The position numbers were made by a program, and so were the translations under genes. Below are positions 17,348-21,696 of a DNA stretch of 64,000 nucleotides, one piece after another. Origin of the DNA: Escherichia coli (GTDB lineage: Bacteria > Pseudomonadota > Gammaproteobacteria > Enterobacterales > Enterobacteriaceae); NCBI RefSeq assembly GCF_003334785.1, contig NZ_QOWV01000001.1. One strand, 5' to 3'. Positions within the stretch are counted from its first letter, which is position 1. Each line of letters opens with the position of its first letter. The notes beneath the pieces were generated by a model. The model saw nothing but the letters and a program-made list of their open reading frames with translations, did not search any database and was not told the DNA's origin.

Positions 17348-18712
17348 ATGTCTTTCGATTCTTTGGGTTTAAGCCCTGATATCCTGCGCGCCGTTGCCGA
17401 GCAGGGTTACCGTGAACCCACCCCTATTCAGCAGCAGGCGATCCCTGCGGTGCTGGAAGGCCGCGACCTGATGGCTAGCGCCCAGACCGGCACCGGCAAA
17501 ACAGCGGGCTTTACGCTGCCGCTGTTGCAACACCTGATCACTCGCCAGCCGCACGCCAAAGGGCGTCGTCCGGTACGTGCGCTCATTCTTACCCCGACCC
17601 GTGAACTGGCGGCGCAGATTGGCGAAAACGTCCGTGATTACAGCAAATACCTGAACATTCGTTCGCTGGTGGTGTTTGGTGGTGTGAGTATTAACCCGCA
17701 GATGATGAAACTGCGTGGCGGCGTTGATGTGCTGGTGGCAACCCCGGGACGTTTGCTGGACCTGGAACATCAGAATGCAGTGAAGCTGGATCAGGTTGAA
17801 ATCCTCGTCCTCGATGAAGCTGACCGCATGCTCGACATGGGCTTTATCCACGATATCCGTCGCGTGTTAACAAAACTACCTGCGAAGCGCCAGAACCTGT
17901 TATTCTCCGCGACCTTCTCTGACGATATTAAAGCCCTGGCGGAAAAACTGTTGCACAACCCGCTGGAAATCGAAGTGGCACGCCGCAATACCGCGTCTGA
18001 TCAGGTGACCCAGCACGTTCACTTTGTCGATAAGAAACGCAAACGCGAATTGCTGTCGCACATGATTGGGAAAGGGAACTGGCAGCAGGTGCTGGTGTTT
18101 ACCCGTACCAAACACGGCGCTAACCATCTGGCTGAACAGCTCAATAAAGATGGCATCCGTAGTGCGGCGATCCACGGCAATAAATCGCAAGGTGCGCGTA
18201 CTCGTGCGCTGGCTGATTTTAAATCGGGCGATATTCGTGTACTGGTGGCAACTGACATCGCTGCGCGCGGCCTGGATATTGAAGAGCTGCCGCACGTCGT
18301 CAACTATGAACTGCCAAACGTACCTGAAGATTATGTCCACCGTATCGGGCGTACCGGTCGTGCGGCTGCTACCGGTGAAGCGTTGTCGCTGGTGTGTGTT
18401 GATGAACACAAACTGCTGCGTGATATCGAAAAACTGCTGAAAAAAGAGATCCCGCGCATTGCGATTCCGGGCTATGAGCCGGACCCGTCAATCAAAGCCG
18501 AACCGATCCAGAACGGTCGCCAGCAACGTGGCGGCGGCGGTCGTGGGCAAGGTGGTGGTCGCGGTCAACAGCAACCACGCCGTGGGGAAGGTGGCGCAAA
18601 ATCTGCAAGCGCGAAACCTGCAGAAAAACCGTCTCGCCGCCTCGGCGATGCCAAACCGGCAGGCGAACAACAACGTCGCCGCCGTCCGCGTAAACCTGCC
18701 GCTGCGCAGTAA
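17348..18712 (+). CDS. rhlE: RhlE, DEAD-box ATP-dependent RNA helicase (454 aa)
   Basis: Walker [14 protein letters not shown] box [12 protein letters not shown] motif; Arg/Gly-rich basic C-terminal tail. Confidence 0.96.
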
Positions 18713-18764
18713 TCTTTTATGCCGGGCTATGCCCGGCATCAGGCTGATGAACAAACGCAAAACT

Positions 18765-18863
<99 letters not shown>

Positions 18864-18943
18864 TTTCACAACAAGCACTTGTCAGCAATTTGAGAACACG
18901 GGAAAAAATTTATCTGTTTTACCGCCCATAAGCCACCGAGACG

Positions 18944-19426
18944 TTACTTCTCTATAGCCAATTGTTCGCGCAACTCCATTAAAAGGTAGCCCAGTCGATT
19001 CTTGCCCTTACCATGACCACCGTCTCCCCAGTAAGCATCGTTTTCCGTATGCTCAACCAGTTTTGCGGGCGCGGTTGCCAGCAAGAGCGCACGCAGTTCT
19101 GCATGCTGTTCGAATTTAGCGCGAAGTGCTTTTCGCATCACCTGTTCTTTGACCGACTCCCAGTTTTTACGCAGAGGCTTAGAACGATCGCGCCCCATGC
19201 GTGCGGCGACCATAGGGGAAGAAACCCGACGGATCTCTTCGCGGTATTTTTCATCAAGGAATTTTTGTGCCTGAAAATAGTGTTCTGAGGTGGGCCAGGT
19301 TTTCCCGTCAACCTTGATGGGCCAGGCGGCAAAGTTAGAAAAATCACCGTAGTCATCGCTGGTGCTGTAGAAATTTATGATGGTGTCTTGCATGACGTGT
19401 TGGATCCTTTGTGCTCGAACGGGCAT
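18944..19426 (-). CDS. ybiA: YbiA, N-glycosidase acting on riboflavin-biosynthesis intermediates (160 aa)
   Basis: ORF 18944..19426 minus; sequence recognised. Confidence 0.9.
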   Translation of the reverse strand: MPVRAQRIQHVMQDTIINFYSTSDDYGDFSNFAAWPIKVDGKTWPTSEHYFQAQKFLDEKYREEIRRVSSPMVAARMGRDRSKPLRKNWESVKEQVMRKALRAKFEQHAELRALLLATAPAKLVEHTENDAYWGDGGHGKGKNRLGYLLMELREQLAIEK

Positions 19427-19511
19427 TAAACCGCATTATGTTGGTGGTTATTGCGAGCCGCTTTCCAGAAACAGAAAAACCATTACCCCTGAAAACCGAA
19501 AAATGCCACAA

Positions 19512-19545: not shown

Positions 19546-21696
19546 ATGGCATTAACCGCCGCGCTTAAAGCGCAAATTGCCGCCTGGTATAAGGCGCTTC
19601 AGGAACAGATCCCCGACTTTATTCCCCGTGCGCCGCAGCGGCAGATGATTGCGGACGTCGCCAAAACGCTGGCCGGAGAAGAAGGGCGACATCTGGCGAT
19701 TGAAGCCCCCACCGGCGTTGGGAAAACGCTCTCTTATTTGATTCCCGGCATCGCCATTGCCCGCGAAGAGCAAAAAACGCTGGTGGTGAGTACCGCCAAC
19801 GTGGCATTGCAGGATCAGATTTACAGCAAAGATTTACCGCTGCTGAAAAAGATCATTCCCGATCTTAAATTCACTGCCGCTTTTGGGCGTGGGCGCTACG
19901 TTTGTCCGCGTAATCTGACGGCGCTCGCCAGTACTGAACCCACGCAACAGGATCTGCTGGCGTTTCTTGACGACGAACTGACGCCGAACAATCAGGAAGA
20001 GCAAAAACGTTGTGCGAAGCTGAAGGGCGATCTCGATACTTATAAATGGGATGGTCTGCGCGATCATACTGATATCGCTATAGATGACGATCTCTGGCGT
20101 CGTTTAAGTACCGACAAAGCCAGCTGCCTCAACCGCAATTGTTACTACTATCGTGAATGCCCGTTTTTTGTCGCTCGTCGGGAGATTCAGGAAGCGGAAG
20201 TGGTGGTGGCAAACCATGCGCTGGTGATGGCGGCGATGGAAAGCGAAGCGGTATTGCCTGACCCGAAAAATTTACTGCTGGTGCTGGACGAAGGCCATCA
20301 CCTGCCGGATGTGGCGCGGGATGCGCTTGAGATGAGCGCCGAAATCACCGCGCCGTGGTATCGGCTACAGCTGGACTTGTTCACGAAACTGGTCGCTACC
20401 TGCATGGAGCAGTTTCGCCCGAAGACCATCCCACCGCTGGCGATCCCTGAACGTTTGAATGCGCATTGTGAAGAGTTGTATGAGCTTATCGCCTCGTTAA
20501 ACAACATTCTCAATCTCTACATGCCTGCCGGGCAGGAGGCAGAGCACCGTTTTGCGATGGGCGAACTGCCAGATGAAGTGCTGGAGATCTGCCAGCGGCT
20601 GGCAAAACTCACCGAGATGCTGCGTGGCCTGGCGGAGTTATTTCTTAACGATTTAAGTGAGAAAACCGGCAGCCATGACATTGTACGTCTGCATCGGTTG
20701 ATTTTGCAGATGAACCGCGCGTTGGGGATGTTCGAGGCGCAAAGCAAACTCTGGCGGCTGGCTTCGCTGGCGCAATCTTCCGGTGCACCGGTGACCAAAT
20801 GGGCGACGCGGGAAGAGCGCGAAGGGCAGCTACACCTCTGGTTTCACTGCGTGGGAATACGTGTCAGCGATCAGCTGGAAAGGCTGCTGTGGCGCAGTAT
20901 TCCGCACATTATTGTCACCTCCGCAACCTTGCGTTCGCTGAACAGTTTTTCGCGTTTGCAGGAGATGAGTGGTCTGAAAGAGAAAGCGGGCGACCGTTTT
21001 GTGGCGCTGGATTCCCCCTTTAACCACTGCGAACAGGGCAAAATTGTTATTCCCCGGATGCGCGTTGAGCCTTCCATCGACAACGAAGAGCAGCATATTG
21101 CCGAAATGGCGGCCTTTTTCCGTAAGCAGGTGGAGAGCAAAAAACATCTCGGTATGTTGGTACTGTTTGCCAGCGGACGGGCGATGCAGCGCTTTCTCGA
21201 CTATGTGACGGATTTACGTCTGATGTTGCTGGTTCAGGGCGATCAGCCGCGTTACCGTTTAGTTGAACTGCACCGCAAACGCGTCGCCAACGGTGAGCGC
21301 AGCGTGCTGGTGGGCTTACAGTCATTTGCCGAAGGGCTTGATTTGAAAGGTGATCTGCTCAGCCAGGTGCATATCCACAAAATCGCTTTTCCGCCCATCG
21401 ACAGCCCGGTGGTGATCACCGAAGGGGAATGGCTGAAAAGCCTCAACCGCTATCCGTTTGAGGTGCAAAGCCTGCCGAGCGCCTCGTTTAACCTGATTCA
21501 GCAGGTTGGGCGACTGATTCGAAGCCACGGTTGCTGGGGCGAAGTGGTTATCTACGACAAACGCTTGCTGACCAAAAATTATGGCAAGCGACTACTGGAT
21601 GCATTACCGGTATTTCCGATAGAGCAACCGGAAGTCCCTGAAGGTATAGTTAAAAAGAAAGAAAAAACGAAATCCCCACGCCGTCGGCGGCGTTAA
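19546..21696 (+). CDS. dinG: DinG, ATP-dependent DNA helicase (716 aa)
   Basis: ORF 19411..21696; start at internal ATG 19546 (MALTAALKAQ); Walker A APTGVGKTL; DEGHH motif; Cys cluster consistent with an Fe-S domain. Confidence 0.95.
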   Translation: MALTAALKAQIAAWYKALQEQIPDFIPRAPQRQMIADVAKTLAGEEGRHLAIEAPTGVGKTLSYLIPGIAIAREEQKTLVVSTANVALQDQIYSKDLPLLKKIIPDLKFTAAFGRGRYVCPRNLTALASTEPTQQDLLAFLDDELTPNNQEEQKRCAKLKGDLDTYKWDGLRDHTDIAIDDDLWRRLSTDKASCLNRNCYYYRECPFFVARREIQEAEVVVANHALVMAAMESEAVLPDPKNLLLVLDEGHHLPDVARDALEMSAEITAPWYRLQLDLFTKLVATCMEQFRPKTIPPLAIPERLNAHCEELYELIASLNNILNLYMPAGQEAEHRFAMGELPDEVLEICQRLAKLTEMLRGLAELFLNDLSEKTGSHDIVRLHRLILQMNRALGMFEAQSKLWRLASLAQSSGAPVTKWATREEREGQLHLWFHCVGIRVSDQLERLLWRSIPHIIVTSATLRSLNSFSRLQEMSGLKEKAGDRFVALDSPFNHCEQGKIVIPRMRVEPSIDNEEQHIAEMAAFFRKQVESKKHLGMLVLFASGRAMQRFLDYVTDLRLMLLVQGDQPRYRLVELHRKRVANGERSVLVGLQSFAEGLDLKGDLLSQVHIHKIAFPPIDSPVVITEGEWLKSLNRYPFEVQSLPSASFNLIQQVGRLIRSHGCWGEVVIYDKRLLTKNYGKRLLDALPVFPIEQPEVPEGIVKKKEKTKSPRRRRR

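Follow-up and report, generated by a model that had tools for sequence, protein, structure and literature searches.

The DEAD-box RNA helicases of Escherichia coli carry C-terminal extensions, which were described in 2006 and proposed to engage either RNA or protein partners (PMC1616957). Pietras et al. (2013) characterized such extensions on DEAD-box proteins as unstructured and positively charged, and the extension of one of them, RhlB, was shown to bind RraA and to be required for RNA-stimulated ATP turnover (PMC3814787). In work by Hausmann et al. (2024) on two Pseudomonas aeruginosa proteins, RhlE1 and RhlE2, loss of the tail cut RNA affinity 7- to 65-fold and left almost no unwinding, while the ATPase stayed intact; the tails alone bound RNA with nanomolar affinity, and RNA-induced phase separation both required them and could be brought about by them alone (PMC11260450). 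Here we consider RhlE of E. coli, encoded at positions 17348-18712 (+ strand) of a 64,000-nucleotide (nt) stretch of E. coli DNA (assembly GCF_003334785.1, contig NZ_QOWV01000001.1), which is called the window below. E. coli RhlE ends in a disordered, positively charged tail rich in Gly and Arg, and this tail is predicted to occupy residues 391-454 (18518-18709, + strand).

The original prediction for this locus, made from the sequence alone, held that the last roughly 75 residues of RhlE, from position 18480 onward, are dominated by Gly, Arg, Gln, Lys, Pro and Ala. The codon for P378 begins at 18479, one base before position 18480, and 18710-18712 is the TAA stop codon; the peptide strings quoted in support of the claim were found letter for letter at residues 392-416 and 441-454. 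As far as composition is concerned the claim was well founded. Residues 378-454 consist of 19.5% Gly, 16.9% Arg, 13% Ala, 13% Gln, 11.7% Pro and 7.8% Lys, so that these six amino acids make up 82% of the segment versus 39% of residues 1-377, while the share of the hydrophobic and related residues ILVFMWYC is 3.9% versus 32.6% in the core. The same segment has a net charge of +13, and window entropy falls from 3.4-4.0 bits in the core to 2.9-3.1 bits in the tail. When the RhlE sequence was shuffled, no 77-residue window in any of 5000 shuffles reached the observed fraction of 0.818 (mean 0.572, maximum 0.714), and across all six frames of the window, which hold 81 stop-to-stop segments of 150 amino acids or longer, the next-best value was 0.58.

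The length of the tail turned out to be shorter than first proposed. An AlphaFold2 model, run on a 115-sequence alignment, had a mean predicted local distance difference test (pLDDT) score of 86.6. Most of the core scored above 90, the block 371-380 averaged 96 and the block 381-390 averaged 84, and the blocks of residues 391-454 fell to 46-56. The model contained neither helix nor strand in 391-454, and no secondary structure past residue 370. In a charge-hydropathy analysis residues 391-454 (hydropathy 0.29 versus a boundary of 0.49, net charge per residue +0.22) lay on the disordered side and the core on the folded side. A Pfam scan of RhlE detected no domain past residue 339, and a sequence search of the PDB with the tail alone returned zero relatives even at E<=10. 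The DEAD-box cores in the PDB align to RhlE residues ~1-375, with ends typically at ~365-378; the exceptions among the phmmer alignments, which reached past the core, were those of yeast Dbp2 (8ark), to RhlE residue 418, and DDX42, to residue 429. Hydrophobic depletion, enrichment in polar and charged residues, low entropy and the lack of a predicted stable fold are the marks of an intrinsically disordered, low-complexity region, and the tail has all of them. Disorder prediction had been set beforehand as a check on the idea of an unstructured basic extension; the tail was not predicted to be folded, and Pfam, the PDB search, pLDDT and charge-hydropathy all bore that idea out.

Between the core and the disordered tail lies a conserved Pro-rich linker, residues 378-390 (18479-18517, + strand), which was delimited by the pLDDT blocks of 96 and 84 and by conservation among homologues. 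At most of its positions, 90% or more of the 120 enterobacterial homologues share the residue, and some of the distant homologues have comparable motifs (for example PDPSIPPEPIPNGR and VDPSIKREPIRQRS). Neither strain 58-3 nor any of the three E. coli alleles used for the analysis of selection described below shows an amino-acid change in the linker. As modelled, it is neither low-complexity nor disordered, although it had originally been counted as part of the tail. Because the linker is conserved and confidently modelled, the disordered tail runs from about residue 391 to residue 454 and is thus ~64 residues long rather than 75-77. This boundary has a parallel in P. aeruginosa, where the fragment RhlE1(1-379) was less soluble and less stable than RhlE1(1-392) (PMC11260450); numbering in the two proteins is nearly the same by the NCBIfam RhlE1 alignment, and the longer construct parallels the ordered residues 378-390 of E. 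coli RhlE.

The 64 residues of the tail include 13 Arg, 5 Lys, 1 Asp and 3 Glu, with zero aromatics, and they can be divided into several parts. Near the start is a Gly/Arg box at residues 394-406 (18527-18565, + strand), recovered by a regular-expression match to RG(X0-4)RG(X0-4)RG. The classes of RGG and RG motifs are reportedly those defined by Thandapani et al. in 2013, and in these terms the box is a tri-RG motif. Di- and tri-RGG motifs, RGG(X0-4)RGG, were sought in the tail and not found, the only strict RGG being that at residue 394. The middle of the tail, residues 413-442 (18584-18673, + strand), is a variable stretch of Ala, Lys, Pro, Ser and Glu in which AKPA..RR units are loosely repeated. 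It is followed by a terminal basic patch, RRRRPRKP, at residues 443-450 (18674-18697, + strand), which is conserved among the Enterobacteriaceae, with per-position identity mostly 80-90% or more in the 120 homologues.

The reading that we favor, with a probability of roughly 0.8, is that residues 391-454 constitute an intrinsically disordered polycationic auxiliary region appended to a generic DEAD-box core, which would serve in RNA tethering, in boosting of unwinding and in RNA-dependent clustering. Electrostatic contacts with the RNA backbone would be made by the Arg/Gly box and by the Arg/Lys patch at the end of the tail, in a manner that is nonspecific for sequence and independent of ATP, and the tail would tether the helicase core to its substrate RNA. 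Tethering in turn would lead to higher RNA affinity and to more productive unwinding per ATP hydrolysed, and multivalent contacts of the tail would lead to RNA-dependent clustering of RhlE into condensates. Because the tail lacks aromatics, condensation would be expected to proceed through tail-RNA contacts (complex coacervation) rather than tail-tail contacts. This analysis found the composition, the predicted disorder, the retention of charge and RG sequences and the purifying selection; from the literature come functions that the E. coli tail may well share with its orthologues, namely RNA binding, condensation and a stimulating effect on unwinding. The suggestion in the original prediction that the extension binds RNA or promotes condensates is likewise supported by published work, including the P. 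aeruginosa tail deletions, and would apply to E. coli RhlE by analogy. RhlE also has the low-complexity domain flanking the helicase core that typifies the condensate-forming DEAD-box ATPases of the kind described by Hondele. In papers that cite Hondele 2019, DeaD, SrmB and RhlE of E. coli are said to form foci or condensates, and RhlB and DbpA not to have qualified (PMC7414142, PMC13106914, bioRxiv 10.64898/2026.03.23.713837). RhlE was also found to colocalize with DeaD-marked condensates in a 2026 study (PMC12758526).

Several considerations weigh against this reading. A search of the literature for an RGG or arginine-rich disordered tail of RhlE turned up neither a description nor a deletion of the E. 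coli tail, and no tail-deletion experiment on E. coli RhlE was found in the accessible literature, in which Hondele 2019 is represented only by the papers citing it. The tails of the P. aeruginosa proteins differ in composition, and the transfer of their quantitative behavior to E. coli may be uncertain. The foci of RhlE in vivo were described with overexpressed protein (bioRxiv 10.64898/2026.03.23.713837). Furthermore, deletion of rhlE from E. coli caused no noticeable growth phenotype (PMC1616957), and the physiological importance of the tail is therefore unproven. Finally, the conserved islands KPAG and RRRPRKP, to judge from their sequences, suggest a requirement that goes beyond generic charge.

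These islands emerged from the comparison of the 120 enterobacterial homologues, in which identity to the E. coli protein is 94% in the core versus 65% in the tail, and in which the tail contains 255 insertion columns versus 66 in the core. Most of the insertions in the tail fall within residues 413-442, where sequences of the Kosakonia, Cronobacter and Franconibacter type have extra AKPAGE..PRR units; KPAG and RRRPRKP are among the islands that stay conserved amid this fast-evolving sequence. Net charge and the RG character are kept throughout: 120/120 tails are net positive (median +13), and 120/120 contain RGG or GGR. A more distant set consisted of 143 cluster representatives, with ~47-71% identity and aligned through the end of the core. 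Their tails range from 0 to 456 residues (median 149) and are not alignable in sequence; columns past ~residue 391 were treated as unreliable and were not used for any claim about motifs. Tails of 30 residues or more occur in 141 of these representatives; 137 of the 141 tails are net positive, and 69 contain RGG or GGR. Judging from these sequences, the conserved feature is evidently a physical property, that of a basic, hydrophobic-poor and flexible tail, which is typical of functional disordered regions.

Some of the homologues have unusual architectures at or around the C-terminus. One protein of 535 amino acids (P0124) has an RhlE-like core that is 71% identical to E. coli RhlE, and in place of the basic tail it carries a release factor RF-1/peptidyl-tRNA hydrolase domain with GGQ (PF00472, residues 404-530, E 3.4e-23). 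This could be either a real fusion of a helicase to an ArfB-like protein or a fusion created by gene calling. Another (P0170) has an ABC-ATPase-like piece at its C-terminus. The top-scoring representative (P0121; 1780 amino acids) has three matched stretches, with 41% identity over these, and in the best of them RhlE residues 2-349 align with positions 1332-1690; perhaps several helicases are fused in it, or the gene call is a concatenation.

Variation in the tail within E. coli was analyzed in two ways. Relative to three divergent E. coli alleles, the tail codons show 11-13 synonymous differences and 0, 4 and 0 nonsynonymous differences; the proportion of synonymous differences (pS) is 0.22-0.26 versus 0-0.03 for nonsynonymous ones (pN), giving a pN/pS of ~0-0.13. 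Variation in length was surveyed in a 273-nt segment from 60 genomes spaced evenly along the match ranking. The K-12 length of 273 nt was found in 43 of the 60; three genomes, of the O157:H7 type, have 276 nt with one extra Gly, and 13, including an ST131 strain, have 270 nt with one Gly fewer. The single-Gly indels between lineages map to the RG box (18527-18565). The remaining genome, that of strain 58-3 (NZ_CP050036.1), has a segment of 231 nt, with an in-frame deletion of 14 codons at window positions ~18635-18676, between the RR at residues 430-431 and the terminal run of Arg. Both the RG box and the terminal RRRPRKP are intact in this allele, the register of the deletion is ambiguous, and the event looks like the loss of one AKPA..RR repeat unit, as it appears in the assembled sequence. 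All of the length variants observed are thus in frame (+3, -3 and -42 nt), and the tail region was matched at 80% coverage or more in every one of the 5424 complete genomes that carry rhlE.

Gain and loss of Gly codons and of repeat units, together with the existence of a natural isolate that has dispensed with 14 tail codons, could be taken to mean that slippage at codon repeats has generated the tail as neutral low-complexity sequence, devoid of any selected function; the lack of a noticeable growth defect upon rhlE deletion (PMC1616957) points in the same direction. We consider this explanation highly improbable, because the pN/pS values are so low, because the indels are all in frame, and because positive charge is kept in all 120 close homologues and in 137 of the 141 distant ones. 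In addition, coverage of the tail is complete among the rhlE-bearing genomes at the 80% threshold, the NCBIfam model for RhlE (NF007882) matches the tail alone with 73 bits, and the P. aeruginosa orthologues need their tails for function (PMC11260450). By comparison of these alleles, the tail of E. coli RhlE is under purifying selection despite its low complexity.

The conserved islands within an otherwise fast-evolving tail also bear on a second explanation, in which the tail is mainly a protein-docking module, with KPAG and RRRRPRKP recruiting RNase E, RraA or poly(A) polymerase and with RNA binding as a secondary property. In vitro, RhlE binds poly(A) polymerase as well as RNase E (PMC1616957). 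The tail of P. aeruginosa RhlE2 is enough for an interaction with RNase E (PMC11260450), although that interaction is RNA-dependent (PMC8266600). RraA binds the Arg-rich, unstructured residues 398-421 of RhlB, and RhlE interacts with RraA as well, in a mixture that precipitates (PMC3814787); the tail of RhlB resembles the terminal patch of RhlE in composition. The islands, however, are themselves rich in Arg, Lys and Pro and would fit RNA binding equally well. A docking function for the tail is therefore doubtful as its principal role, with an appreciable chance of being right, and it is compatible with the RNA-tethering reading rather than exclusive of it. A more elaborate proposal, which we put forward tentatively and regard as rather unlikely, is that the tail is an assembly of modules, each a short linear motif specific to enterobacteria (the 378-390 segment, the RG box, QPRR, KPAG and RRRRPRKP), in which the terminal Arg patch would dock RraA or an acidic segment of RNase E and the number of AKPA..RR units would tune the reach of the tail or the strength of condensates. 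RraA is a candidate partner here because of the analogy with the RhlB 398-421 peptide.

The assignment of the tail to a kind seen in other DEAD-box helicases held up well when the E. coli paralogues, taken from the K-12 record, were aligned and each extension was taken to begin at the alignment column of RhlE residue 371. By this measure the RhlE extension has 84 amino acids, a net charge of +12, 79% Gly, Arg, Gln, Lys, Pro and Ala, and 7% hydrophobic residues. The extensions of SrmB (71 amino acids, +17), RhlB (41 amino acids, +9) and DeaD (259 amino acids, +8) are like it in being basic, hydrophobic-poor and non-conserved, and they span lengths from 41 to 259 residues. There are differences within this pattern: the SrmB extension is rich in Lys and lacks RGG, that of RhlB is Arg-rich and half the length of RhlE's, and that of DeaD, unlike RhlE's, also includes folded parts and is partly more hydrophobic, with RGG-like GGERRGGGRGFGGERREGGR repeats at its end. 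The exception is DbpA, whose extension of 91 amino acids (+7) is 30% hydrophobic and forms a known folded RNA-binding domain. RhlE fits the general pattern in this comparison, which had been proposed at the outset, and is the most strongly Gly/Arg-biased of the five.

A wider comparison gives a similar picture. RhlE1 and RhlE2 of P. aeruginosa resemble E. coli RhlE in having a core of two RecA-like (REC) domains and a fast-evolving, basic, disordered C-terminus, with no folded accessory domain. The ~64-residue E. coli tail is rich in Gly, Arg and Gln and has the tri-RG box, whereas the RhlE1 tail is short and Lys-rich, and the RhlE2 tail is the longest of the family and has a stretch rich in Gly and Glu (Hausmann et al. 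2021, PMC8266600). The RGG/RG tails of eukaryotic DEAD-box proteins, of the Dbp2, Ded1/DDX3 and LAF-1/DDX3 type, are also Gly/Arg-rich low-complexity flanks on a helicase core; RhlE differs from them in lacking aromatics and in having only a single strict RGG triplet. Methylation of the arginines of RGG motifs is typical in eukaryotes and is not expected in E. coli.

The composition of the tail in Arg, Lys, Gly and Pro resembles that of the tails of ribosomal proteins. This resemblance raises a further possibility, that the tail is a ribosome-assembly tether comparable to the basic extensions of ribosomal proteins, which would become ordered on rRNA and target RhlE to pre-ribosomal particles. 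Along with SrmB and CsdA, RhlE has been tied to ribosome biogenesis (PMC3814787; PMC8266600, citing Jain 2008), and both 16S and 23S rRNA enhance its ATPase activity (PMC3814787). However, a synthetic 24-mer RNA also activates RhlE, which is regarded as a non-specific helicase (PMC1616957, PMC3814787). RhlE also lacks the RNA recognition motif-like folded domain through which proteins of the DbpA/YxiN type recognize hairpin 92 of 23S rRNA, with no Pfam domain past residue 339 and no secondary structure past residue 370. We consider a ribosome-specific tether quite unlikely, and return to the more general reading of a nonspecific RNA-binding auxiliary region.

Disordered basic tails are already known from RhlE and from DEAD-box proteins more widely, and the recognition of one at this locus is correct but ordinary. 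E. coli RhlE has already been listed among the condensate-forming helicases, and roles of the disordered regions of the RhlE family have already been shown by experiment. What the present analysis adds is modest: a sharper boundary, with the ordered part extending to about residue 390; purifying selection on the E. coli tail despite its low complexity; and a map of conserved islands versus a repeat-variable spacer, which could guide the design of tail-deletion constructs of E. coli RhlE.

The rest of the gene is that of a conventional DEAD-box helicase. The rhlE coding sequence (17348-18712, + strand) comprises 454 codons and the TAA stop, and its assignment to the ATP-dependent DEAD-box RNA helicase RhlE is based on the list of open reading frames (ORFs), on identity with K-12 and on NCBIfam. 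All 1365 of its 1365 nt are identical to those of b0797 in K-12 MG1655, and the RhlE equivalog model NF007882 scores 981.6 bits versus a cut-off of 743, with residues 1-454 on profile positions 1-456. By megablast, rhlE was found in 5424 of 5426 complete E. coli genomes, and the RefSeq product name is always 'ATP-dependent RNA helicase RhlE'. The helicase (REC) core, residues 1-377 (17348-18478, + strand), was delimited by Pfam, AlphaFold2, PDB alignments and identity among homologues. It consists of two RecA-like domains, the DEAD domain PF00270 at residues 25-196 (17420-17935, + strand; E 5e-49) and the Helicase_C domain PF00271 at residues 232-339 (18041-18364, + strand; E 4e-30), and the D-E-A-D motif is present in the translation.

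Some candidate features of the DNA that encodes the tail were considered and set aside. The Gly/Arg box is not a clean tandem repeat at the DNA level: the only repeat detected by Tandem Repeats Finder in the tail DNA is a weak one, with a period of 15 nt and 1.9 copies, at 18594-18622. Two ORFs that overlap the tail, one of 103 amino acids in another frame of the same strand (18459-18770, +) and one of 90 amino acids on the opposite strand (18488-18760, -), were rejected as genes because RefSeq annotates rhlE alone at this location and because the synonymous-only substitutions fit the rhlE frame. Both are probably by-products of the GC-rich, repetitive codons in this part of rhlE. An Rfam scan of 17000-19500 at E<=1 detected no RNA element inside the tail coding region, all of the matches lying downstream of the stop codon.

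The region between rhlE and ybiA contains palindromes, within 18716-18867, that resemble repetitive extragenic palindromic sequences or bacterial interspersed mosaic elements. A consensus scan detected no intrinsic terminator after rhlE; a hairpin, tgccgggctatgcccggca, lies right after the stop codon at ~18719-18737, and an inverted repeat is found farther downstream (18780-18793 and 18829-18842). The Rfam matches here are to ES036 (CssrF) at 18786-18828 on the - strand, with 43.3 bits and thus above the gathering score of 37.6, and to naRNA4 at 18832-18867, below threshold. The neighboring genes are arranged as on the K-12 map, with cecR upstream on the opposite strand and ybiA and then dinG downstream. 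The cecR ORF (16448-17131, - strand) was listed as 227 amino acids from an upstream ATG, versus the annotated K-12 coding sequence of 672 nt and 223 amino acids, which is a matter of start-codon choice only. The dinG ORF was listed with a GTG start at 19411, overlapping ybiA, and the K-12 annotation starts dinG at window position ~19546. DinG, a DNA helicase, also has a short, strongly basic C-terminus, ending in …KKKEKTKSPRRRRR, at window positions ~21650-21696.

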